Shown here: piece after piece, positions 13,223 to 52,689 of the stretch
Position numbering within the stretch: position 1 is the stretch's first letter
Layout: each line of letters begins with the position of its first letter
Origin: Mercenaria mercenaria
Taxonomy: Eukaryota
Direction of reading: 5' to 3'
Assembly (NCBI RefSeq): GCF_021730395.1
Contig: NC_069372.1
Coordinates: forward strand, 62,975,754 to 63,039,753
DNA: 64,000 nucleotides
The notes under the pieces: generated by a model
Seen by the model: the letters and a program-made list of their open reading frames with translations, nothing else
Database searches by the model: none
Told to the model about the DNA's origin: nothing
Made by a program: the position numbers and the translations under genes

Positions 13223-13439
13223 CTATACAAATATAAACTTTATATAATCTCTGTTTATGTGTCATAAATCAGCAGCAACTTCTACAAACCTTTCCAACTG
13301 ACTGAGACTATAGAAAATTCATATGCAAGGTGATTTAATTCAAGAACTTAAGGTTAGTATTAGCCCAACAATAATTGGATGCTTTTATAGTCATGGTTCA
13401 GCATTTCAGACAGAAGATGATTGAAATTAAAATGTAACT

Positions 13440-14680
13440 AGAGTTGCCACAGGAGTGACGAATCATACCCCCACAATATGGCCTTGTCATAGAACTAAGC
13501 CAATGTCAAAGCCAAACTTGCTTGACCTTTGACCTACTGACCTCAAAATCAATAGAGGTCATCTGCTGGTCATGATCAACCTCCCTATGAAGCTTCATGA
13601 TCCTCAGCCCAAGCGTTCTCAAGTTATTGTCCAGAATCCAGGTCACTCTGACCTTTGACCTCTGGAAATCGAAATCAATACGGGTCATCTGCTGGTCATG
13701 ACCAACCTCCCTTTTAAGTTTCGAAATCCTAGTCTCAAGCGATCTGCACTTATTGTCAGAAAACTGTTTAAATGTTCCTGATCACTGTGACCTTAACCTG
13801 TGACCTACTAACCTCAATATCATTAGTGGTCAACTGCTGGTCATAACCAACCTCCCTATCAATTTTCTTGATCCTAGACCCAAACGTTCTCATGTTACCA
13901 TCCGGAAACCGTTTAACTGTTTTGTGTTATTGTGACTTTGACCTTTGACCTAGTAATCTCAAAGTCAAACTTGACCTGTATTTTATTAGTTACACCTGTG
14001 TACAAAAATTCATGATCCTAGACCCAAGCATTCTCAAGTTATCATACGGAAACCGTTTAACTGTTCTAAGTCACTGTGACCTTGACCTCTGGCCGACTGA
14101 CCTCAAAGTCGAACTTGACCTGTACTTGATGATGTTATACCTGTGTTACAAAAATTATGATCCTAGGCCCAAGCATTCTCAAGTTATCATCCGGAAACTG
14201 TTTAACTGTTCAGGGTCACTGTGACCTTGACCTTTGACCTACTGACCCCAAAGTCGAACTTGATCTGTATTTTCTGATGTTACACCTGTGTACCAAAAAA
14301 TCATTTAAATCGGTCAAGCCTTTCATGAGTTATCATCTGGAAAGCATTTAACTGTTCCGAGCCACTGTGACCTTGACCTTTGACCTATGGACCTCAAAGT
14401 CGAACTTGACCTGTATTTCATGATGTTACACCTGTGTAATAAAAATTACGATCCTAGGCCAAAGCGTTCTCAAGTTATCATCTGGAAACCGTTTAACTGT
14501 TCAGGGTCACTGTGACCTTGATCTTTGATCTACTGACGCCAAAGTCAAACTTAACCTGTATTTTCTGATGTTATACCTGTGTACCAAAATTTATTTAAAT
14601 CGATCAAGCCTTTCAACAGTTATCATCCAGAAACCATAAAACCAACGGACCGACAGACAAGCTCACTCCTATATACCCTC
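13440..14680. mobile_element. Helentron/HINE-like non-autonomous element carrying a ~145-bp satellite (gaccttgacctttgacct family) and a 3' (ACNG)n microsatellite tail
   Basis: 5' flank 'actagagttgccacaggagtgacgaatcataccccc', tandem units, 3' 'accaacggaccgacagacaagctcactcctatataccc'. The same flanks and array recur at 34035-34990. ORFs inside are artifacts. Confidence 0.6.
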
Positions 14681-15161
14681 CAAAACTTCGTTTTTTTGGG
14701 GGGTATAATCAGGGACACTGCTTGACCAGAATATATTATGTGTACGCTTAGACTGAAAGGGCTGTCTGGGTTGCATTTTTAAGGTTTTATCTTACAATGA
14801 GAGTTGTCCATAAGACAGATGAGGCTCAATTATTTAATAAATTTATCACAGTGTAATGAAACTGATATATGAACATTTGAACAAATTTGAGAAAGAAAGG
14901 GGTCCATGCAGAGAAGTTGTCTGTCATAAAGCACCTATCAGCAAACAATCCCTTTATCTTTTTGATAAAGTCAACATCCATGAAGTTTATACTTATCATA
15001 TATCTAGTGTAGTCAGAGTGATACAATTGTCAGTACAGCTTTAATCACTGAAAGTGTCAATACTACATGTATGATTAAATCACTGATAAAAATCATTCTG
15101 TAAGAAATATATCTATCATGTTGGAATATATGACCTTGGACTTAAGAAGACATTGTACATT

Positions 15162-15168
15162 TATAAAA
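15162..15168 (+). promoter_or_regulatory. TATA-like box (TATAAAA) ~45 bp upstream of the cGLR ATG
   Basis: ttTATAAAAtc at 15161-15170; the ATG at 15209 sits in a strong Kozak context (aaagATGG). Confidence 0.35.
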
Positions 15169-15208
15169 TCATCACTTTTTATGCTGATATTTAAGAAAAT
15201 TTATAAAG

Positions 15209-15229
15209 ATGGGATGTGCATCATCTAAG
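15209..15229 (+). CDS. cGLR micro-exon 1 encoding MGCASSK (predicted N-myristoylation Gly2 and palmitoylation Cys3)
   Basis: ATGGGATGTGCATCATCTAAG followed by a gtagaa donor. A 57-nt intron ends at the acceptor tgtgtgtttaag|ATATCAG and joins in frame (phase 0) to the Mab-21 ORF. The GTG 'start' of the ORF track has no eukaryotic ATG. Confidence 0.45.
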
Positions 15230-15286
15230 GTAGAAAATAACCTTGATATACCTAAATGAAGTATATGAAAAGAGTGTGTGTTTAAG

Positions 15287-16228
15287 ATATCAGATGAAGA
15301 AGTTAATTTCATTCAGGATGGGATAGAAACTCTTGTTCATGAAATAGCTAATGAAATATATAAAGATGAATCTTTTCAAGCTAAAATGAATAAGTATTTA
15401 ATAAAGGCCTTGGGAGAGGGAGGAGTGAGACAGCTTATTACTGGTGTGGGTAGTTTTTATGAGAAAACAAAAAATAGTTTTCCAGATGAATTTGACTTCA
15501 TTTTTCTTCTTGGAACATTTACTCAAATTTACACTTGGTCATACTTAGATATGAACATTTTTTTTACAACAATAACAGAATTAGTAAAAGATGACGAACA
15601 TAAGATTCATAAAAGTAGAAAAGCCTTCACCAGAGTAATAAACCGAACCTGTGAGCTTTATTTTCTCTCAAGCTACTACAAGACAGGTCCAGCAATAAGT
15701 TTACTATTTCGGTATCAGAATGGAATTGATAAAGAGAGAACTATAAAAGTAGATCTTGTGCCTGCTTTTGCATTTCCAACAATACATTGTAAACAGATTC
15801 AACGGAAAATAAATGATATTTGTCCACTGAGACCATTCTGCAAGAAGATATTATCTACAGGATCTTGTTTACAAGTTTACAAAAGAGGAACGACAGTTAC
15901 TGAAACTGAAGTAAATTTCATGAGAAATATCATGTCAAAAAATCATGTGGAAGTGTACCGGATCCTCAAGTATCTCATAAATGGACATGGCGATGGTGAA
16001 AAACTAGAAAATCATTTACTTCATACAGAAAAGAAACACTATTCCTCCTACAAGATTAAGACAATGATGATCTATCATCATTATAAGTGTATAAATCCTG
16101 ATTCTGCAGATATTGGACCTTGTGTCTTACAGGTGCTAAATGAAATCTGTAAATACAAGCATACAGACACTTTTCCTTCAATAGTTTCAATTCAAAAGTC
16201 TTTTGTGGAGAAATATAGGCGTGTTTGA
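15287..16228 (+). CDS. cGAS-like receptor (cGLR) / Mab-21-type nucleotidyltransferase, main exon (~313 aa)
   Basis: 'ITGVGSFYEKTKNSFPDEFDFIFLL' matches human cGAS '[24 protein letters not shown]' (GS motif plus the [DE]h[DE]h acidic pair). 'KVDLVPAFAF' supplies the third catalytic Asp. The N-terminal helix 'EEVNFIQDGIETLVHEIANEIYK' resembles the cGAS spine helix and 'VYRILKYLIN' resembles cGAS 'CLKLMKYLLEQL'. There is no H(X5)CC(X6)C zinc thumb. Stop codon at 16226-16228. Confidence 0.85.
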   Translation: MSDEEVNFIQDGIETLVHEIANEIYKDESFQAKMNKYLIKALGEGGVRQLITGVGSFYEKTKNSFPDEFDFIFLLGTFTQIYTWSYLDMNIFFTTITELVKDDEHKIHKSRKAFTRVINRTCELYFLSSYYKTGPAISLLFRYQNGIDKERTIKVDLVPAFAFPTIHCKQIQRKINDICPLRPFCKKILSTGSCLQVYKRGTTVTETEVNFMRNIMSKNHVEVYRILKYLINGHGDGEKLENHLLHTEKKHYSSYKIKTMMIYHHYKCINPDSADIGPCVLQVLNEICKYKHTDTFPSIVSIQKSFVEKYRRV

Positions 16229-16289
16229 GGAAATATATTTTTTATCACTTGCAATGGATTTACAGAAAATGCAAGAACAGAAAGTTGGT

Positions 16290-16880
16290 TATGATTATGA
16301 GAAGTGCAAAATCAAACAATCAGTTTCTGCACAATATGTAGATTCAGTTTTATGAGAATAAATCAAAATAAAACTAGAGATGCTTTTGAGAAAAGCGCAT
16401 GTCTCCCACAACTGCCTAATCATCTTGCGCATGTGCTTTCGTGCACCCAAAACGTACCCTATACTACATATTTCACATGCGCTTTCATGCAGGCAAAACA
16501 CACCCTATACTACTAATTAGTAGTATAGGGTACGTTTTGCCTGTATGAAAGCGCATGCGAAATGAGGATTTTTCTGTAATTCAAGGGCCATAATTCCAAA
16601 GTGCTTGAGCTGATTTGGCTAGTTATCAAACTTAGGCGAGGTCTTATGGTCAGACACATTTTGTTTAAGTTTGGTAAAGATCGGGCAAGAAATGTTCGAC
16701 TTAGAGTGCGGACAAGCTTTGTGACAGACAGACAGACAGACAGATACACAGACTGGAGTAAATCAATATGTCTCCCACACCACTGTGTGGTGGGAGACAT
16801 AATGAATTCAGAAAGGAGAGGAAAATCTCTTTCTTTTACAAAATGAAAGGAAAATGTTGGGGGACCAGGCAAATCTGCTG
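16290..16880. mobile_element. MITE/HINE-like element immediately 3' of the cGLR gene
   Basis: Contains a 48-bp perfect palindrome centred at ~16515 and a (GACA)5 microsatellite. The terminal motif 'atgtctcccaca' at 16397 is inverted at 16787-16801, forming a perfect 33-bp palindrome at 16769-16801. Confidence 0.5.
16357..16362 (+). promoter_or_regulatory. Candidate polyadenylation signal AATAAA for the cGLR gene
   Basis: AATAAA lies ~130 nt downstream of the stop codon. Confidence 0.35.
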
Positions 16881-18215
16881 CTTGAGCATGTGGTGTTTCA
16901 CTGTATTATTGAAATGGCTTAGAAATATGTTATGGCTAATCTATAGCTCTGATTTCAGAGACAAACGTGAATGCTTTGGGCAAACTATAATTTGCTCAGC
17001 CTCAATGAGTTAATTGAAAACTGTTGTAAATTATTCTTCCAGTTATATGAGTGAGCACTTTTTAATATAACATATTATTAGTAGTACTTTTTTCTTTTTG
17101 TAACCTAGATTTCAGATATAAACCTGTTTGCATGCACATTTTTGCCAACAAAGTGACTGTATAATTCGAGGCCTTAATATGAAACTAGCCTAAGTGTACA
17201 TAAGTAAAGAAGCAGATAAACTAGTTTTGCATTGAACCCACAAAATACTAATAGCTGACAATGGGCCAAAGCAACAGCCCATTCTCAGAACTTGAATTAA
17301 CTAAGTAAGTTAGTAAATGCTAATCTTCCATAGGGCACTCTTTTGAAGCATATATATACATATGTAAGAACATATATTAAAAAAAGTTTTTAAGGAAATA
17401 GAAGAATCCTTTTGAATTTGTGCATTTGAGTTATTCCTCATTTGGTTTCAAATTACAAACAATATGGCATCATTTGACATCATCAATAGAAACAAGGAAG
17501 AATCGCTGTGAATAAATGACATCTAATTTACTTACAAAAGAAAACTGATTTGATATCATTGCTAAACATCTCTGTGTAGTATAATCTTTTATTTGTTTCT
17601 GTTTAGTAAGGGTTTAAGCTGTCTTATAAAAATCATATCTTTTTGTTTTTACTGACCACACTGTCCGTAAACATTTTGAAAAATGGAAATAATTTACATT
17701 TCGGGAACTTTGCTCCCCACAAATGTCAATAGTGACTACTTGGTACAATCTCTTTGCCTAAGAGTAAGATGTATGTGTTTATGTACCTGATGTTCCCTCG
17801 GCTAGCAATGTTCGTAACGATAATATGTCATTATATCTACTTACATTTGCCTCACCTCTTGGACAGATTTTGCATATGGATATTTCTATGACATCATTCT
17901 GCTCTCAGATTTGTTCTAACAACTGACTGTATAGATCAATACAACTTGATCTAAATTGTCTGAAGCATCATTTCGACTAACTAGTATGATAACATACCTG
18001 AATGAATGTAAATCGAACATGTGTATGCCATCAGAATGATATTGAATTTACCATTACCTGTGATCATTAACATCAGCGCAGGGAGAACTTTGCATGTACT
18101 GGTGCAAAACACCTGGGATGTTAAAGAACAAGCCTGCCTATTCATAAAGAGCTAGGCTAAGTTTGTCAGATATACCTGTACCCAAAAGGTTCTCTTATCC
18201 TGCTTAAGTTATTAA

Positions 18216-18800
18216 GTGGACAATGTCAATTTTTGTACTTTTAAAGTATTTCCTGGGTATCAAACTTGCCTGAGATATTATGCCTATGAACATTGTGACC
18301 AAGTCTGGATAAGAACTACTCAAGTTATAGAGCAGACACTGCAAATATTTTCAATTTTAAGTACTCCAAGGGCCATAACTCAAGGCCTTCGGTATCTGGC
18401 TGGTCACAGAAACTGCCCATGACATAATGCCCAAAACATTGCTGCTAAGTTTGGTGACCATTGGATAAGAACTGCTTAAATTAGAGATGGGACACTGTCA
18501 GTTTTCACAATTTTGAGTAATTCAAGGACCATAACTTTAGAAAGACTTTGAGGATCAAGCTAGCTATCCACCTTGGCCAAGATATTATGCTCATAAACAT
18601 TGTGACCAACTTTGGTGAACACTGGATAAGAACTGCTCAAGTCAGACAGCAGACACCGTCAATTATTGCAATTTTGAGTAGTTCAAGGGCCTTAACTCCA
18701 GAGTCACAAGGATAATCCAGCTATTTATCCAACATGGCCAAAATGGTGTGCCTATAAACACTGTGACCAAGTTTTGATAAGAACTTAAGTGGACACGGAT
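18216..18800. repeat. ~190-bp satellite x3 (gtgaccaa...ggataagaactgctcaag...ggccataactc family) ending in the hairpin ggacacggatagtccacctgtccg
   Basis: Three tandem units read directly from the sequence. Confidence 0.7.
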
Positions 18801-19435
18801 AGTCCACCTGTCCGTTGCAGGTATTCCCATAACATGTGTAGTTTAACAGGCATATAAAAAGTTGAGATATAAATCTGGTATAATATAATATTTCATTTTA
18901 TGGAACAATACAACCACTAAATCAACGGAAATTAGTTTCATGGTACCTGTAACTTCTCAACATAACCCACTGGCATGCTTAGAAATTGCCTCGTCTGGTT
19001 ACAGACAAGATTTATCTATTTCATTTTTTTTTAATTTCCTTAAATTCTTTTTTCTTTTTATTATATTGCAAAATTCTTCTCATCTCCCAAGTATCTATGT
19101 CTTGATGAGAGAAGGGACATAATAATGAAAAATCTGAATGGCTTTCATAGCTATCTCCTACGAACAAAGCAAAGAGTCTGAATGCAGTCTCAAATACTGT
19201 GCATTACAACATTCCTACATTTTTAGCAGCAAAGGATTGGGATGTTCTTAAATTATACTTTGAACACAAAATATGACAGACGGACAGATGCATGCATGCA
19301 CCATTATTAAATATGTCCTGTTTTTCTGAAACAAGACTTTTTAAAAAATATTTCTAAACATGCTGTTCTGAAGGAAGGTGCTAATACTGGGTTTATGTTG
19401 CTTTAATGTTATTTTATTTGTTGTTGTAAACAAAC

Positions 19436-19566
19436 CTTGGCAACCATATCCATCATTTTGCCTCTGATATGTACACTCTTGAGAGGAATGTGTTCTTTCT
19501 TGTTTCCCTGTAGTCCAGCTTTCACCTTGGCTAAAGGATCTGGGATATCTTTAACATCCGTTATAT
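19436..19566 (-). CDS. PARP4: PARP4-like linker exon between catalytic and VIT domains (DITDVKDIPDPLAKVKAGLQGNKKEHIPLKSVHIRGKMMDMVAK)
   Basis: Aligns to PARP4 'TKAGLQDASGNLVPLEDVHIKGRIIDTVAQ'. Acceptor ttttag|, donor GCCAAG|gtttgt. Phase 1 in matches the upstream exon, phase 0 out matches the VIT exon. Confidence 0.7.
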
Positions 19567-21999: not shown

Positions 22000-22920
22000 C
22001 GCCTTGCGGGTGCTGACGCTCATCTGATTTTTTTGTATAACAGAAATATTGTCCTACCCATGATTTTCTAAGTCTAAAAAGGGCCATCATTCTTGCAAAA
22101 AGCAGGATAGAGTTATGTTTCTTGATGTACAGCATCCGCTTATGATGATGAAAAACTCTTGCAAGTTTTAAAGCAATAGCTTTGATAGTTTATGAGAAAA
22201 GCTGACTTAAACATAATACTCAACCAAGAAAACTGATTTTCTAAGTCCAAAAGGGGCAATAATTATTGCAAAAAGCAGGATGGAGTTATGTTTCTTGCTG
22301 TACAGGGTCAGCTTATGATGGTGAACAAGTGTTGCAAGTTTCAAAGCAGTAGTTTTGATAGTTTAAGAGAAAAAGTTGACCTAAACATAAAACTTAACCA
22401 AGAAATCTAATATTTTCTAAGTCCAAAAGGGGCCATAAATCTTGCAAAAAGCAGGATGGAGTTATGTTTCTTGCTCTACAGGGTCAGCATATGATGGTGA
22501 ACAAGTGTTGCAAGTTTTAAAGCAATAGCTTTGATAGTTTAGGAGAAAAGCTGACCTAAACATAAAACTTAACAAAGAAAACTGATTTTCAAAATCCAAA
22601 AGGGGCAATAATTCTTGCAAAAAGCAGGATGGAGTTATGTTTCTTGCTGTACAGAGTCAGCTTATGATGGTGAACAAGTGTTGCAAGTTTCAAAGCAATA
22701 GCTTTGATAGTTTAGGAGAAAAATTGACCCAAACATAAAACTTAACCAAGAAATCTGATATTTTCTAAGTACAAAAGGGGCCATAAATCTTGCAAAAAGC
22801 AGGATGGAGTTATGTTTCTTGCTGTACAGGGTCAGCTTATGATGGTGAACAAGTGTTCCAAGTTTCAAAGCAATAGCTTTGATAGTTTAGGAGAAAAGCT
22901 GACCTAAATATAAAACTTAA
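22000..22920. repeat. ~180-bp satellite x5 (ggggccataattcttgcaaaaagcaggatggagttatgtttcttgctgtacag family) inside a PARP4 intron
   Basis: Tandem units read by eye. The same family occurs in inverse orientation at 58380-58900. Flanked by the hairpin 'gagcaccgccttgcgggtgctgacgctcatctgat'. Confidence 0.8.
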
Positions 22921-23040
22921 CCAGGCAACGCCGACGCCGATCAAGTGATGACAATAACTCATCATTTTTTTTCTCAAAAAATCAGATGAGCTAAAAAAAA
23001 ATGGCATAGAATAAATTAAACATGAAAAGAATATAATCAC

Positions 23041-32049: not shown

Positions 32050-33200
32050 TGGAGATATACCCATTTTAATTTGAAATAAAGGGAGGTAATTTGACATTAT
32101 CAGTCCATAGTTATCTACCCTGATTGGCTCAGTCCAACTAATGACAATAATGAAATTTCAAATAAGTCCTATAAGTACTTACTGATATAAATCCATTTTG
32201 ATTACAATCAGGGGAGGTAATCAGATATAAAATAACTCTGGAACCTATGATTGGATCTGATTTGTCATGGAATCCAAGATTTATTGTTGTTGAAGATATT
32301 TTGGAAGTTTGTATCAAATAAAACCATAAATGAAGTCTCTATATGGCTGCAAAAGCCAAAATAACCAATTTTGGACCTTTAAGGGGCCATAACTCTTGAA
32401 CCCATGAAGGAATCTGGCCAGTTCAAGAAAGGAACTAAGATCTTGTGGTGATACAAGTTGTGTGCAAGTTTGGTTAAAATCAAATCATAAATGAAGCTGC
32501 TATTGTGCAGACAAGGTCAAAATAGCTAATTTTGGTCCTTTTAGGGGCCATAACTCTGAAACCCATTATGGGATCTGGCCGGTTCAAAAAAGGAATTGAG
32601 ATCTTATGGCGGCACAAGTTTTGTGCAAGTCTGATTAAATTCAAATTATAAATGAAGCTGCTATTGTGCAGACAAGGTCAAAATAGCTAATTCTGGCCCT
32701 TTCAGGGGCCATAACTCTGGAACCCATAATGGGATCTCGCCAGTTCAAGAAAGGAACCAAGATCTTATGGTGATAAAAGTTGTGTGCAAGTTTGGTTAAA
32801 ATAAAATCATTTATAAAAGAAGCTGCTATTAAGCAGACAAGGTCAAAATAGCTAATTCTGACCCTTTCAGGGGCCATAACTCTGGAACTCATAATGGAAT
32901 CCGGCCAGTTCAAGAAAGCAACCAAGATCTTATGGTGATACAAGTTGTGTGCCAGTTTGGTAAAAGTCAAAGCATAAATAAATCTGCTATTGTGCAGACA
33001 AGGTCAAAATAGCTAATTTTGGCCCTTTCAGGGGCCATAACTCTGGAACCCATATTGGGATCTAGCCAGTTCAAGAAAGGAATCGAGATCTTATGGTGAT
33101 ACAAGTTGTGTGCAAGTCTGGTTAAAATAAAATCATAAATGAAACCACTATCGTGCAGACAAGAAATTGTTGATGGACGGACGGACGCACGGACGAACGA
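32050..33200. repeat. ~165-bp satellite x ~6 (ggggccataactctggaacccat...caagttgtgtgcaagt family) ending in a (GGAC)n microsatellite
   Basis: Tandem units followed by 'gatggacggacggacgcacggacgaacg'. ORFs 32641-33212 are artifacts. Confidence 0.8.
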
Positions 33201-34034: not shown

Positions 34035-34990
34035 ATAACTAGTTGTCACAGGAGTGACGAATTATACCCCACCAATATTGCCTTGTCAGAGAACTAAGCC
34101 AATGTCAAAGCTGAACTTACTTGACCTTTGACCTACTGACCTCAAAATCAATAGAAGTCATCTGCTGGTCCTGATCAACCTCCCTATGAAGTTTCAAGAT
34201 CCTCTGCCCAAGCATTCTCAAGTTATTGTCCGAAAAAGGTTTAAATGTTCCGGGTCACTCTGACCTTTGACTTTTGGAACTCAAAATTAATACAGGTCAT
34301 CTGCTGGTCATGACCAACCTCCCTATAAAGTTTCGTGTTCCTAGTCCCAAGCGTTCTGAAGTTATTGTCCGAAAACAGTTTAAATGTTCTGGGTCACTGT
34401 GACCTTGACCTTTGACTTACTAAACTCAAAATCATTAAGGGTTATCTGCTGGTCATAACCAACCTCCCTATCAATTTTCATGATCCTTGGCCTAAGCATT
34501 CTCAAGTTATTATCCGGAAACCGATTAACTGTTTCGTGTTATTGTGACCTTGACCTCAATGTCGAACTTGACCTGTATTCAATCATGTTACATCTGTGTA
34601 CAAAAATTCATGATCCTAGGCCCAAGCGTTCTCAAGTTATCATTCGGAACCATTTAACTGTTCCGAGTCACTGTGACCTTGACCTTTGCCCTACAGACCT
34701 CAAAGTCGAACTTGACCTGTATTTTCTGATGTCAAACCTGTGTACCAAAAATTATTTAAATTGGTCAAGCCTTTCATGTGTTATCATTCGGAACCATTTA
34801 ACTGTTCCGAGTCACTGTGACCTTGACCTTTGCCCTACAGACCTCAAAGTCGAACTTGACCTGTATTTTCTGATGTTACACCTGTGTACCAAAAATTATT
34901 TAAATTGGTCAAGCCTTTCAAGAGTTATCATCCGGAAACCATGAAAAACCATCAAACTGACCGACCAACCGCCAAGCTCACTCCTACATA
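34035..34990. mobile_element. Second copy of the Helentron/HINE-like satellite-carrying element (same family as 13440-14680)
   Basis: Shares the 5' flank 'aactagttgtcacaggagtgacgaattatacccc', the gaccttgacctttg tandem units and the 3' 'ctgaccgaccaaccgccaagctcactcctacatacc'. Confidence 0.6.
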
Positions 34991-47546: not shown

Positions 47547-48290
47547 TTGTGTATTAGTATGGCAGAACAAAGCACATCGTTTCATACCGACGGTATCGGT
47601 TATACAAATGTAGATAGTCATATGTATGCTAGTGCGTGCACGAGTTCTGTGTTTTTACCAAGGAGTGAGAGTTGTCCACATACTTGTGTGTTTTCGCCTA
47701 TTAGACGACCTGAAGGTATCGTAACTTCTCATGTAAATTCTCCAAGAATTGACTTTGATGAAACATATTATGAATTACCTGCTAGATTACCGAATATAAA
47801 TTATGCTGGTTCATATATAGAAGAACCCATTGCAAGTGACACAACTAGGTTGTATCGAAGCAGAAAACATGGCGTTACTTTTTGAATTAGGGCATCAACA
47901 AACACAAGGCAGCATTGAAAGTCGTTCTACCTCTCGACCTGTTAGTACTTATTTAAATAGTCAAACGTTGCTACATAGCAGTAAAGAACCAAAAGTCAGG
48001 TACTATGATAGGCAAACAAGATTATTACAACCTGTTGACTGTATTGGCAATATGTCTCCGCATTATATGCCCACGATTTTGAATGAGAACCGTCAGTATA
48101 CGAATACACAAGTCAGGAACCCGGTATTCGAACCTAACAGAACACAGTTTGATTCTCTCAGAACAAATAGATATACAGCACCGATAACTGTAGATACAAG
48201 ACAGACACCTCTATCCCATCCCATTGCACAAACAAACACGTTTGTACCTACATGTATGGCGTACCATTTGGGTCGAAAGTTTCCAGGTAC
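47547..48290 (+). pseudogene. gag N-terminal region (Asn/Thr/Gln-rich), interrupted
   Basis: ORFs 47547-47885 and 47830-48387 are overlapping, frameshifted, low-complexity polypeptide continuous with the gag region. Confidence 0.4.
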
Positions 48291-50160
48291 CACGGGTATA
48301 AACTGGAAATGTACCCGCGGGTATAAAAATTGTTCCCGAGGGTACAATTTTATACATGCAGGTATAATTTTACACCCGCAGGTATGAAAATTGTACCCGC
48401 GGGTATAATTTTACAAAATTATACCCGCGGGTATAAAATTATACCTGCAGGTATAAAATTGTAAGTAGGTACACCATAGGTATAATTTTATACCCGCAGG
48501 AATACTTTTTATACCCGCATGTACAATTTTATACCCGCAGGTATAAAATTATACCCGCGGGTATAAAAGTGTACCCGAGGGTATAAAAATTATACCAGCA
48601 GGTATAAAAACTATACCCGCAGGTATAAAAATTGTACCCGACGGTACAAAAATTATACCTACGGGTATAAAATTATACCCGCAGGTATAGAAATTATACC
48701 CGCGGGTATAAAAATTATACCTGCGGATACAATTTTATACCCGCGGGTATAAAATTGTACTCACGGGTATAAAAGTATACCTGCTGGTATAAAATAATAC
48801 CCGCGGGTACAATTTTATACCCGCGGGTATAAAAGTGTACCCGTGGGTACAAAAATTATACCCGCGGGTATAAAAATTGTATCTGCAGGTATAATTTTAT
48901 ACCCGTAGGTATAATTTTATACCCGCAGGTATACTTTTATACCCGTGGGTACAATTTTATATCCGCAGGTGTAAAATTATACCCGCGGGTATAAAAGTGC
49001 ACCAGAGGGTATAAAAAGTATACCCGCGGGTATAAAAATTATACATACGGGTATAAAATTGTACCCGAGGGTATAGAAATAATACCCGCGGGTATAAAAA
49101 TTATACCTGCGGGTATAATTTTGTACCCACGGGTACACTTTTGAACCCGCGGGTATAAAATTGTACGCGCGGGTATAAAAGTATATCTGCGGGTATAAAA
49201 TTATACCTACGGGTATAAAATTATACCTGCAGGTACAATTTTTATACCCGCGGGTATAGTTTTTGTACCCGCGGGTACACTTTTATACCCGCGGGTATAA
49301 TTTTATACCTGCGGGTATAAAAGTGTACCCGCAGGTACAAAAATTATATATAGAAATTATACCCGCGGGTATAAAAATTGTATCTGCAGGTATAATTTTA
49401 TACCCGTAGGTATAATTTTATACCCGCAGGTATACTTTTATACCCGTGGGTACAATTTTATACCCGCAGGTGTAAAATTATACCCGCGGGTACAATTTTA
49501 TACCCACGGGTATAAAAGTGCACCAGAGGGTATAATTTTTGTACCCGCGGGTACACTTTTATACCCGCGGGTATAATTTTATACCTGCGGGTATAAAAGT
49601 GTACCCGCAGGTACAAAAATTATATATAAAAACTATACACGCGTGTATAAAAATTGTACCTGCAGGTATAATTTTATACCCGCGGGTATAATGGTACAAA
49701 ATTATACCCGCGGGGATATTTTGTATACCCTCAGGTATAATTTTTATACCCGCGAGTATAATTTTGTACCTGCGTGTACAATTTTATACCTGCGGGTACA
49801 AAATTATACCTGCGGGTATAAAATTGTACCCGCGGGTATAAAAGTATACCTGCGGGTATAAAAATTATACCTACGAGTATAAAATTATACCTACTGGTGT
49901 ACAATTATACCCGCAGGTACAATTTTTATACCCGTAGGTATAATTTTTATACCTGCGGGTATAAGTTTGTACCTGCGGGTATAATTTTATACCTGCGGGT
50001 GTAAAATTATACCCGCGGGTATAAAAATTATACCTACGGGTATAAAATTATACCCGCGAGTACATTTCCAATTTATACCCGCAGGTATAAATTTATACCT
50101 GCAGGTATAATTTTATTACTACCTGTGGTACCTGGAAACTTTCGACCCAAATGGTACGCC
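48258..50160. mobile_element. Foldback/MITE-like insertion: perfect 36-bp terminal inverted repeats enclosing ~1.8 kb of a 22-bp palindromic minisatellite (gtatacccgcgggtataaaatt)n
   Basis: Left IR ggcgtaccatttgggtcgaaagtttccaggtaccac (48258-48293) is the exact reverse complement of the right IR (50125-50160). The interior holds ~80 units, each with an ACCCGCGGGT palindrome. Confidence 0.8.
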
Positions 50161-50192
50161 ATATTCATGTGTGCAGACAGGTAGCTCTGTGA

Positions 50193-51074
50193 ATGACCTG
50201 TATATGCCCAATGATCGGAGTTTATGCTCAGACAGATCCTTCTTTACACGATAGGATAGGAAATACAGTGTACAATGTTGGTAATTTTCAGCCTACTAAA
50301 CATACAATGTTTGATGACAGTATGCAAAATACAGTTTATCCGCAGTCAAACTATAATACTCCCCAGAAAACTAAGGAAATTAAGCCAGATAAGTTTGATG
50401 GTACCTCTAGTGAATGGCCAGATTATATTGTTCATTTTGAGCAGGTAGCTAGCTGGAATACTTGGAACGAAAGGCAAAAGGCGTGTATGTTGTCTATAAA
50501 CCTTAGGGGTGAGGCACAAAGGCTTTTATCTACATTAAACCCGAACAAATGACAAACTACCTTGAAATTAAGAAAGTACTGACTCAAAGATTTTCCCCGC
50601 ATGAGAGAGAATTAGCTTTCAGGTGTGAATTTCGAACTAGGAAAAGACTAAAGGGTGAGTCTGTTTCCGATTACGGATATGTATTACGTAAGCTCGGACA
50701 AAAAGCTTTTCCGTCTATGCCTAGTACTGCGCTAGAAACATGTATAATTGATCAGTATATCCACGGATTAGGCAATTTTGATTTACAAAAACATGTTCAG
50801 TTTTTACATCATGACTCGTTAGATAAGGCAATAAGTGCAGCCGTTGAGTATTGTGCTTTACAGGGTTTCGAAGCCTGATAACACTGAAGTCAGGGAGACA
50901 ACTCCATCATCCTTGTTAGAAAAAGATCAAGTTGCGTCCCTTAGATCGAAAAAACTTAAACCGGATTGCAGTTTAGATGATTTACAAAAGATGTTATCCT
51001 CTCTGCTTGATCAAAAATTGACTGAAAAATTGTCGCATATACAGAGTAACGCTCATAAACGTATTCTAGCATAA
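50193..51074 (+). pseudogene. gag capsid-like core, three frameshifted ORFs
   Basis: See the element call above; ORFs 50193-50552, 50549-50878 and 50835-51074 lie in different frames. Confidence 0.55.
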
Positions 51075-51363
51075 AACTGCTGTTCTTGTCACTTTTTGGG
51101 GGTGTTTTAACAGGAGAGAAAACGTGTGTTAACAGAGAGATTCTCGCGCTCACGTGCTGTTATAACACCTTTTTATATATGCGCGTTCCGTGGCAGAGCG
51201 TTAACGCATTACGGCCCCAAAACGGATAATTCAAATTGAAATGACGTCAACGTGAAAAAACAACTCGGATATTCCCGCGCATTTCATGGAAATTTAATGA
51301 CGTTGAGGGATAATGTATTCATTTTTTCACGTTTTATGCTAGAATAGCGTTAGCGCATGTTAT

Positions 51364-51470
51364 TTTCGTGTTATAACATCTTCAGAATCCCTCGGGATAC
51401 GTTGGTACCATCGCCCTACGGGCTCGGGCACCAACCAATCCCTCGGGATTCTGCAGACGTTATAACACGA
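51364..51470. repeat. ~105-bp hairpin (cgtgttataacatcttcagaatccctcgggat...atccctcgggattctgcagacgttataacacg) inside the gag region
   Basis: Inverted repeat read directly; the 'gttataacac' motif also occurs at ~51140. Confidence 0.6.
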
Positions 51471-52689
51471 AAAAACATGCGTTATCCCTACAATCAAAGC
51501 CCAAAAAGGACCGATCCTGTGCAACCGTACGCCACAAATGCACAGCAACAGAGTAAAGGATTCGAACCGAGACAAGGCCGAATAAGGAGGTCGGATATTG
51601 TGTGTGGTTATTGTAATAAGAAAGGGCATGTAGAGTCACGTTGTTATAATAACCCAGCAGCAATTCAGCCACAATATGTTTATTATACCCCGCAGGGACC
51701 CCAACCAAGACAAGGTTACGGACCAAAGTTCCAAGGACGCGAATTTTACTCAGAAACACAGCCTCAGCCATATCAGGGAAACTAATTGAGACTGGGTTTG
51801 CGGCCGAAAATTCAGTCAATATCATTTCAAATAGGCCAGAAAATAAAAAGTCAGATTGTTCTAAGCAAAATTCGGAATCGCAGATATCCGCAGGTTCTAC
51901 AAATAAGCTTGCGAATCAGTGTATACCTTTTCTAACCATTTTTTAAAATATAATTCCTTGTGTTTGTATTTGTATCTATGATTATATATTTTTTTATGAC
52001 ACATTGCATTTTGTATCGCTAACAACAGTTCTTTGAATTGTCCGTTGAATGAATGAATGCTTGTCCGGTCCTGAAGATTTTAAACGACATTTTGTAGAAC
52101 GGTTTTATGTACGTAGAAGAATGGTAATCGATAGTAGAGTATTTCGTTGATAAAACATGGTAAGTGTGACAAGTTTCCGTCTTTTACAGGTAAAATCATA
52201 AAAAGATAATTTGGCCAGTCAGAGGACTCGAACACTCAACCCTGAGATTAGTGGCAAAACGCTTTGTCCGTACAGCTATATCTGCACATGATACGTGATG
52301 GTATATAATTGGCTTTTCAATAGCAATATCATTGTTTGGGTTCGTACACCGAAAATTAATTTACGGAAACATACGGAATATTCATAAGTGCCAGGTCAAT
52401 ACTTACGGACAATACAAAATCTATTTTATTGCATCAACCTTGTCTTAACTGCAAACAAATACTGAGAAAAGGCTATCCCTCTGAAGTAACGGTATGTTAC
52501 GCATTTTCACGTGTTTTTCGTGGGTTGTAGATATGTTTATGAGTTGGATAGATATTACAGCAGCATGCCTCCAGATTTGGCTAAAAATAATCTTTCTTTC
52601 AAATTGAACTTTGATCATATTATGAACATTAGAATATGAATTTTTGTTTCTAACATATCTTAAAAGTTTCAAATCAAGAAAAAAAGATG

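Follow-up and report, generated by a model that had tools for sequence, protein, structure and literature searches.

A probable pseudogene of a cGAS-like receptor family within a PARP4-like intron of Mercenaria mercenaria, and predicted membrane anchors among its bivalve relatives

A 64,000-nucleotide stretch of DNA from the clam Mercenaria mercenaria (NCBI RefSeq assembly GCF_021730395.1, contig NC_069372.1, positions 62,975,754 to 63,039,753 of the forward strand; hereafter the window, in whose coordinates all positions are given) carries a locus related to the cGAS-like receptors (cGLRs) at 15209-16355. A first-pass annotation of this stretch had described a compact, functional gene of two exons, in which a micro-exon encoding MGCASSK was joined across a 57-nt intron to an open reading frame (ORF) for a lipid-anchored receptor. 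At the level of sequence, that model of micro-exon, 57-nt intron and compact functional gene is refuted. The copy is better read as a young pseudogene of a birth-and-death immune gene family, a reading to which we give a probability of roughly 0.6. More tentatively, and at slightly less than an even chance, the locus would be a probably dead member of a catalytically competent bivalve cGLR-like clade in which predicted membrane tethering is the rule. Three routes to the membrane are represented: N-acyl motifs (MGNPFSK, MGNLISK, MGCASSK), CaaX boxes (CVIL, CVML, CSIV) and hydrophobic C-terminal tails.

The evidence that decides against the two-exon model lies in the supposed intron itself (15230-15286, + strand). 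The putative ancestral start codon at 15209, which is the first ATG downstream of an in-frame stop, opens the segment encoding MGCASSK (15209-15229, + strand), a motif of the Gly2/Cys3 acylation type whose position fits the N-termini of relatives (MGNPFSK, MGNLISK). This ATG and the main open frame share a reading frame, with TGA 15257 and TGA 15266 between them, and translation from it as sequenced reaches a stop after 16 codons. The motif is thus encoded where it had been placed, but it heads a 16-codon ORF and is not a micro-exon.

The 57 nt that follow are coding-derived and appear to have suffered two frameshifting deletions, as indicated by homology in two frames. Frame 2 across the segment reads MGCASSKVENNLDIPK-stop-SI-stop-KECVFKISDEEVNF and frame 0 reads LIYLNEVYEK; nodes 21-34 of a hidden Markov model (HMM) of the family are matched in frame 0, and nodes 25-342 in frame 2. 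The deletions are placed at about 2 nt in a TA run near 15243-15250 and at 1 nt near 15270-15272. Adding TA in GATATA[TA]CCTA and one base in GAAAAG[G]AG yields NNLDIYLNEVYEKECVFK, which is colinear with, and equal in length to, the family consensus NNLELYLNDVYEKECVFK. Relatives share a conserved N-terminal segment, NNLELYLNDVYEKECVFKIEQEEVEF, and the tblastn alignments of the ten relatives examined in detail all begin at 15269, inside the supposed intron.

Candidate gene models were scored against the family HMM, which had been built without the window sequence. The spliced two-exon model reached 348.8 bits, compared with 377.0 bits after correction of the N-terminal lesions, 374.2 bits after correction of a C-terminal lesion described below, and 402.2 bits with both corrections. 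The N-terminal correction therefore gained 28 bits on the full protein, and it gained 36 bits on an N-terminal construct. In a shuffle control with free choice of a two-frameshift path across the 57 nt, the real segment scored 72.9 bits against 36.6 bits for the spliced form, and 200 shuffled segments gave a mean of 36.8 bits (sd 2.0, maximum 43.9), so that none of the 200 reached the real value. Additionally, the relative in Mytilus trossulus has an uninterrupted coding sequence (CDS) of 1,182 nt encoding 393 aa, and that of M. californianus is likewise without an intron. Splicing of 15230-15286 would remove a conserved helix that corresponds to residues 17-30 of the M. trossulus protein (P0002) and is confidently folded in its structural model, whose predicted local distance difference test score (pLDDT) is 92.9. 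A GT at 15230 and an AG at 15285-15286 are present, and the 57-nt gap joins in frame. However, eight of the 16 local GT/AG combinations that skip both stops are also in frame, and the in-frame join of the proposed intron therefore carries no weight. The supposed intron is frameshifted coding sequence, and its GT and AG are chance dinucleotides around a damaged segment.

A third frameshift, from frame 2 to frame 0, lies at 16210-16226 (+ strand), with HMM nodes up to 342 matched in frame 2 and nodes 349-391 in frame 0, and leads to a premature TGA at 16226-16228. It can be placed only approximately, since the linker length at this position varies among relatives. Beyond it, at 16224-16355 (+ strand), HMM and tblastn comparisons recovered out-of-frame C-terminal helices, FEEIYFLSLAMDLQKMQEQKVGYDYEKCKIKQSVSAQYVDSVL, followed by a putative ancestral stop at TGA 16353-16355. 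This segment of 43 conserved residues matched family HMM nodes 349-391 with 17.2 bits (E=3e-7) and was 63% identical to one relative (P0014) over 30 aa, in a frame differing from that of the main ORF; its correction added 25 bits on the full model. The helices that match 16224-16355 are folded with confidence in the P0002 model, and the relatives, which are 384-515 aa long, have a common C-terminal helix signature, L..MQ.S..SYDYERDK..SV..Y. An intron that would repair this frameshift was considered and rejected, as any GT..AG pair there spans less than 20 nt. The compactness attributed to the gene (about 320 aa) is consequently an artefact of leaving the last 43 residues out of frame. The predicted ancestral gene is a single-exon CDS at 15209-16355 of about 382 codons.

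Between these lesions the locus retains a main open frame of 319 codons plus TGA (15269-16228, + strand) with a cGLR-like nucleotidyltransferase core, which matches family HMM nodes 25-342 with 359.8 bits. The ORF first reported at 15287-16228 is indeed open to its termination at TGA 16226-16228, but the true frame begins at 15269 and not at the AG, reaching back into the proposed intron with KECVFK before ISDEEV. The GS motif (GVGSFYEK, 15443-15466), the DEFDF acidic pair (15482-15499) and the third Asp in VDLVPA (15746-15769), all on the + strand, align to the catalytic residues of cGAS and of the oyster receptor Cv-cGLR1, which bears out the cGAS-type signature proposed initially. These residues vary little or not at all within the family. 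A further motif, YRILKYLINGHGD, lies within the same frame at 15956-16000 (+ strand). The zinc-thumb motif (H-x5-CC-x6-C) is absent from the window protein, as had been stated.

Family assignment was examined with domain models, profiles and predicted structures. Contrary to what a Mab-21 assignment had led to expect, PF03281 matched the window protein with 22.1 bits (E=1.8e-4) against a curated value of 24.1, which is below the gathering cut-off. Amongst 36 family members, Mab-21 (PF03281) was found at E<0.01 in three and PF20266 in one; a PF03281 match forms part of the definition of the cGLR/Mab21 superfamily (PMC10732462). The window protein alone gave weak matches to cGAS and cGLR sequences in the PDB, and a family profile matched Cv-cGLR1 (8gjw) with E=4e-11 across some 280 positions; this profile also reached many cGAS chains, at about 1e-5. 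Identity to the solved cGLRs is only 16%. The AlphaFold and Foldseek check suggested for the ORF was run and recovered a cGAS fold: the AlphaFold2 model had a pLDDT of 80.9, and the top 50 PDB matches were all cGAS, with a probability of 1.0 and a template modelling (TM) score of about 0.57. In the comparison table, whose figures carry no unit, Cv-cGLR1 stood at 21.3, the Tribolium cGLR at 20.8, MB21D2 at 19.7 and cGAS at 19.4. The best sequence and fold matches were to active cGLRs and cGAS, not to MiD proteins or MAB21L1. Altogether, the window protein is cGLR-like by its modelled fold and aligned active site, with a catalytic triad that is predicted to be intact, and it is a member of a divergent subfamily that, by these profile scores, lies beyond the curated Pfam thresholds.

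The proposed history of the copy is as follows. An ancestral gene would have run uninterrupted from ATG 15209 to the TGA ending at 16355, with about 382 codons, an MGCASSK start and an AATAAA downstream. Three small indels (at 15243-15250, 15270-15272 and 16210-16226) would then have broken the frame, leaving a stop after 16 codons from the ATG and the conserved C-terminal helices out of frame. Intact relatives would make cyclic (oligo)nucleotides while attached to membranes through N-acylation, prenylation or a tail anchor, and in that position would sense ligand at the membrane surface and signal to STING-type receptors. Decay of this kind occurs in the family, given that the M. californianus orthologue of P0002 (L002:3001-4176) has a premature stop (MIYHHFN-stop-KTFDT) where relatives have Cys, with the remaining 90 codons intact. 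This makes it another copy in the family, the second, that was recently disabled or is polymorphic.

Several observations weigh against a pseudogene. All three indels plausibly lie in slippage-prone, low-complexity contexts, where long-read assemblies also go wrong, all family-invariant residues are kept, and there is no stop in 319 AT-rich codons. If the gene is dead, its invariant residues and open main frame indicate that it died recently. Exact-protein look-ups of the window ORF, from the GTG start and from the first internal ATG, returned no record in public contigs, and those of two relatives (P0005 and P0008) returned none either; the searches brought up no reads or transcripts. The gene may accordingly be intact in the animal, its three frameshifts being errors of sequencing or assembly, in which case it would encode a single-exon, lipid-anchored cGLR of about 382 aa starting with MGCASSK, without micro-exon or intron. 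We regard this as unlikely but as deserving serious weight: errors are typical of sites such as the TA repeat and the A/G run in which the two N-terminal indels fall, the main frame is without substitution-type stops amid its retained invariant residues, and the similarity of the out-of-frame segments to the family remains high. Opposed to it is the contrast between three frameshifts in the 1.15 kb of the locus and none in about 1.9 kb of the 12 exons of the surrounding PARP4-like gene that were aligned to its relative (P0038) in the same window, which speaks against frequent indel errors in the assembly, as well as the existence of inactivated copies in the family. The contrast itself is marginal (p of about 0.05 in a simple binomial estimate). 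As it is sequenced, the copy cannot make a lipid-anchored enzyme, unless the indels are sequencing errors.

A functional two-exon gene could still be imagined if the damaged segment had turned into an intron (micro-exon 15209-15229, intron 15230-15286, exon 15287-16228), so that splicing would skip both TGA stops by way of the available GT and AG and place the MGC motif at the head of a 320-aa product with the catalytic core. We consider this very improbable. An in-frame GT..AG is expected by chance at the frequency given above, and the 19 codons excised would be conserved coding sequence for a folded helix. The donor AAG/GTAGAA is without the usual G at +5 and the pyrimidine run of the acceptor is short, both by comparison with the consensus. 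Even the shortest of the 11 host introns is about seven times as long as the 57 nt proposed, the two Mytilus relatives with retrieved loci have no CDS intron, and the separate C-terminal frameshift is beyond repair by splicing. A product started at an internal Met (MNKYL..., 280 aa) was likewise set aside; it scored 312.8 bits against 348.8 for the spliced form, is without the N-terminal helix and the C-terminal helices, and is unlikely to be functional. The fourth possibility concerns the family rather than the copy, namely that these are non-enzymatic or differently acting Mab21-fold proteins, for example membrane adaptors like MiD49/MiD51, and that the cGLR label reflects resemblance of fold. 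The sub-threshold Mab-21 match, the three of 36 members with E<0.01, the 16% identity to solved cGLRs and the many members with predicted membrane anchors, as MiD49/51 are membrane-anchored, are in keeping with such a role. It is nevertheless improbable, as GS, [DE]xD and the third Asp are invariant or nearly so, with GS..[DE]xD kept in 67 of 77 members, and in both sequence and fold the family comes closest to active cGLRs and cGAS rather than to MiD or MAB21L1. A processed (retro)pseudogene was also considered and rejected: the CDS of the two Mytilus relatives examined is single-exon as well, no poly(A) tract follows the AATAAA hexamers at 16357-16372, and the lesions are frameshifts in a native-looking locus.

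Database searches returned 37 and then 58 relatives. Over most of the protein, identity did not exceed 42%; higher values, of 45-48%, were confined to alignments of about half of it. Those with names were all bivalve entries labelled "uncharacterized protein", from Mercenaria, Mytilus, Ruditapes, Mactra and Mya, and no precomputed Pfam domain was found among the relatives. In an exhaustive profile search, 574 cluster representatives reached E<=1e-3, of which 74 reached E<=1e-30. The family is unannotated and is named from bivalves only.

The N-terminal motif proposed for dual lipidation has counterparts in these relatives. Three of the five best matches start with MGN (MGNPFSK, MGNRFVK, MGNILRC) and a fourth has MGNNLSE at residue 7; in-frame stops precede the MG start of one relative, P0012. 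Residues 1-12 of the P0002 model are disordered, as expected of a flexible anchor. MGCASSK fits G-{EDRKHPFYW}-x(2)-[STAGCN]-{P}, a PROSITE-style pattern. What stands of the proposal is that MGCASSK occupies the N-terminal position of the family, where relatives have MGNxxSK, but no translatable full-length protein lies behind it. A census of anchors was made amongst 77 near-full-length members, all of them motif predictions on predicted proteins. The N-myristoylation consensus was found in seven, a CaaX box (CVIL, CVML, CVLI, CSIV, CTCL or CSCV) in another count of seven, and a strongly hydrophobic C-terminal tail in 22, with some predicted anchor in 36 (47%). The baseline for a CaaX box is about 1-2% of proteins (PMC10541624). 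GS..[DE]xD is kept in 29 of the 36 anchored members. By these motif counts, a lipid anchor is plausible for the family, and not for the window copy as modelled. A bivalve radiation of cGLRs is documented (10.1101/2023.02.22.529553). The cGLR survey paper notes this radiation and does not discuss membrane anchoring. We found nothing specific on membrane-anchored or lipidated cGLRs in the literature, in a search that was incomplete and thus no proof of novelty.

Signals on either side of the gene were examined as well. A TATAAAA at 15162 and a TATAAAG at 15202 (15162-15208, + strand) have a putative promoter role. The TATAAAA box (15162) and the Kozak ATG (15209) of the earlier proposal are both present, but at a frequency no higher than chance: TATAAAA occurs about once per kb on the locus strand of this window of 35% GC, and Kozak-like ATGs about twice per kb. 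Both Mytilus relatives have a splice acceptor, TATTTTCAG, 8 nt before the ATG (L001:3980-4000 and L002:2980-3000), which suggests an intron in the 5' untranslated region (5'UTR) of the Mytilus genes rather than a TATA-proximal start. In the window, TTTATAAAG lies immediately 5' of ATG 15209 (15196-15208), and a 5'UTR intron may equally end with its 3' splice acceptor at the junction TTTATAAAG/ATG, as in Mytilus, in which case the "TATA box" might not mark a promoter.

Downstream, two AATAAA hexamers (16357 and 16367; 16357-16372, + strand) directly follow the putative ancestral stop. An inverted-repeat search found a palindromic element at 16418-16570 that resembles a miniature inverted-repeat transposable element (MITE), with arms of 47-48 nt that are 83-91% complementary. 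Its single relative in the window is weak and partial (18511-18655). The element announced as a MITE 3' of the gene thus exists as a palindrome, with one weak partial copy in the window, and the MITE label is plausible but provisional. A second short palindrome with 24-nt arms lies at 16760-16808, and a 14-nt inverted pair at 16399-16412 and 16787-16800 (ATGTCTCCCACAAC and GTGGTGGGAGACAT) is separated by 374 nt; together they are candidates for the ends of the 3' element. Next to the palindromic element downstream of the gene, a monomer at 16570-16715 is 69% identical to tandem repeats of about 161-173 bp. These contain GGGGCCATAA(C/T)TC and occur at three sites (18427-18774, 22061-22923 and 32305-33163); we take them to resemble MITE- or Helitron-associated satellites of bivalves.

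The host of the locus is a PARP4-like gene on the minus strand (2507-41000), recognized from exon colinearity and Pfam matches. Twelve minus-strand exons, running from 23238 to 2507, are colinear with P0038, a protein with PARP, VIT and VWA Pfam domains. BRCT and PARP matches of the host sit upstream of these colinear exons; PARP scored 39.7 bits, above its cut-off, and BRCT_2 scored 23.7 bits, below its cut-off of 27.3. The host is 43% identical to its single database relative, as measured with a chimeric exon query, and is PARP4-like by its predicted architecture of BRCT, PARP, VIT and VWA. All 11 local introns of this gene are about 395 nt or longer. The one that concerns us, 6,213 nt at 13223-19435 (- strand), has GT..AG borders that are exact on the minus strand (donor AAG/GT at 19436/19435, acceptor AG/G at 13223/13222), and P0038 aligns colinearly with the exons on either side of it (19570-19436 and 13222-13091). 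The entire cGLR-like locus lies inside this intron on the opposite strand, so that the antisense nesting was correctly described, the host being PARP4-like. No further cGLR-like copies were found in the window by tblastn with 37 relatives or by blastn of the locus.

Other repeats were observed in the surroundings. Tandem arrays with a unit of about 145 bp (2-5 copies, 75-88% matches) occupy 13523-14637 and 34118-34942, in two different PARP4-like introns; one of them lies just upstream of the cGLR-like locus, and the arrays yield spurious repeated ORFs with CDLDLWPTDLKVELDLY. A run of + strand ORFs at 47547-51785 is an apparent degenerate gag region of a retroelement, with a CCHC-like knuckle, CGYCNKKGHVESRC, at 51357-51785 (+ strand); no Pfam family reached threshold in this run.

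The window copy is of limited interest in itself. It offers a lesson for annotation, in that a chance in-frame GT..AG pair can lend plausibility to a micro-exon model of what is a frameshifted pseudogene, an error that relatives expose. It has also led to an unannotated bivalve cGLR-like family with conserved catalytic motifs, and the lead lies in the recurrent predicted membrane anchoring across that family. Real anchors would imply that cGLR signalling in bivalves is partly organised at membranes. The family would then be to the cGLRs what prenylated OAS1 p46 and myristoylated OAS2 are to the OAS proteins, with nucleotide second-messenger sensing on membranes in molluscan immunity, and a parallel to the prenylation that directs human OAS1 p46 to viral replication organelles. 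Intact candidates for work on localisation and activity are M. trossulus LOC134723669, which starts with MGNPFSK, and M. mercenaria LOC123538946, which ends in CVIL; M. mercenaria LOC123543181 is an example of a member with a predicted tail anchor.

Compared with known systems, MGCASSK shares Gly2, Cys3, Ser6 and Lys7 with the SH4-type motifs of Src-family kinases and G-alpha-i (Lyn/Yes, MGCIKSK). SH4-type proteins are, however, unrelated to the window protein, whose ATG meets a stop after 16 codons. MiD49/MiD51 (MIEF2/MIEF1) are membrane proteins of Mab21 fold with an N-terminal transmembrane anchor and no known role in making nucleotide signals, whereas the bivalve family keeps the catalytic residues and has N-acylation motifs, CaaX boxes or C-terminal tails instead. 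Lipidated precedents amongst related sensors are prenylated OAS1 p46 (PMC8357416) and myristoylated OAS2 (PMC13372824). Human OAS1 p46, with C-terminal CaaX prenylation, and N-myristoylated OAS2 belong to the OAS superfamily and not to cGLR/Mab21, and their products are 2'-5' oligoadenylates acting on RNase L; in the bivalve family, lipidation is predicted from motifs. Vertebrate cGAS shares the nucleotidyltransferase fold and the catalytic triad (profile E of about 1e-5), but the window protein is without its zinc thumb and long basic N-terminal tail. The nearest comparison is with animal cGLRs, namely Cv-cGLR1 (Crassostrea virginica, PDB 8gjw), the Tribolium receptor (7lt2), Sp-cGLR1 (8gjy) and human MB21D2 (7lt1), with which GS, DEFDF and VDLVPA align and with which the window protein has the absence of a zinc thumb in common. 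It differs from them in an identity of about 16%, in a Pfam Mab-21 score below the curated threshold and in the frameshifts of the window copy, and the bivalve family has its own N-terminal helix, NNLELYLNDVYEKEC, and C-terminal helices (SYDYERDK..SV..Y), with predicted membrane anchors in about half of its members.

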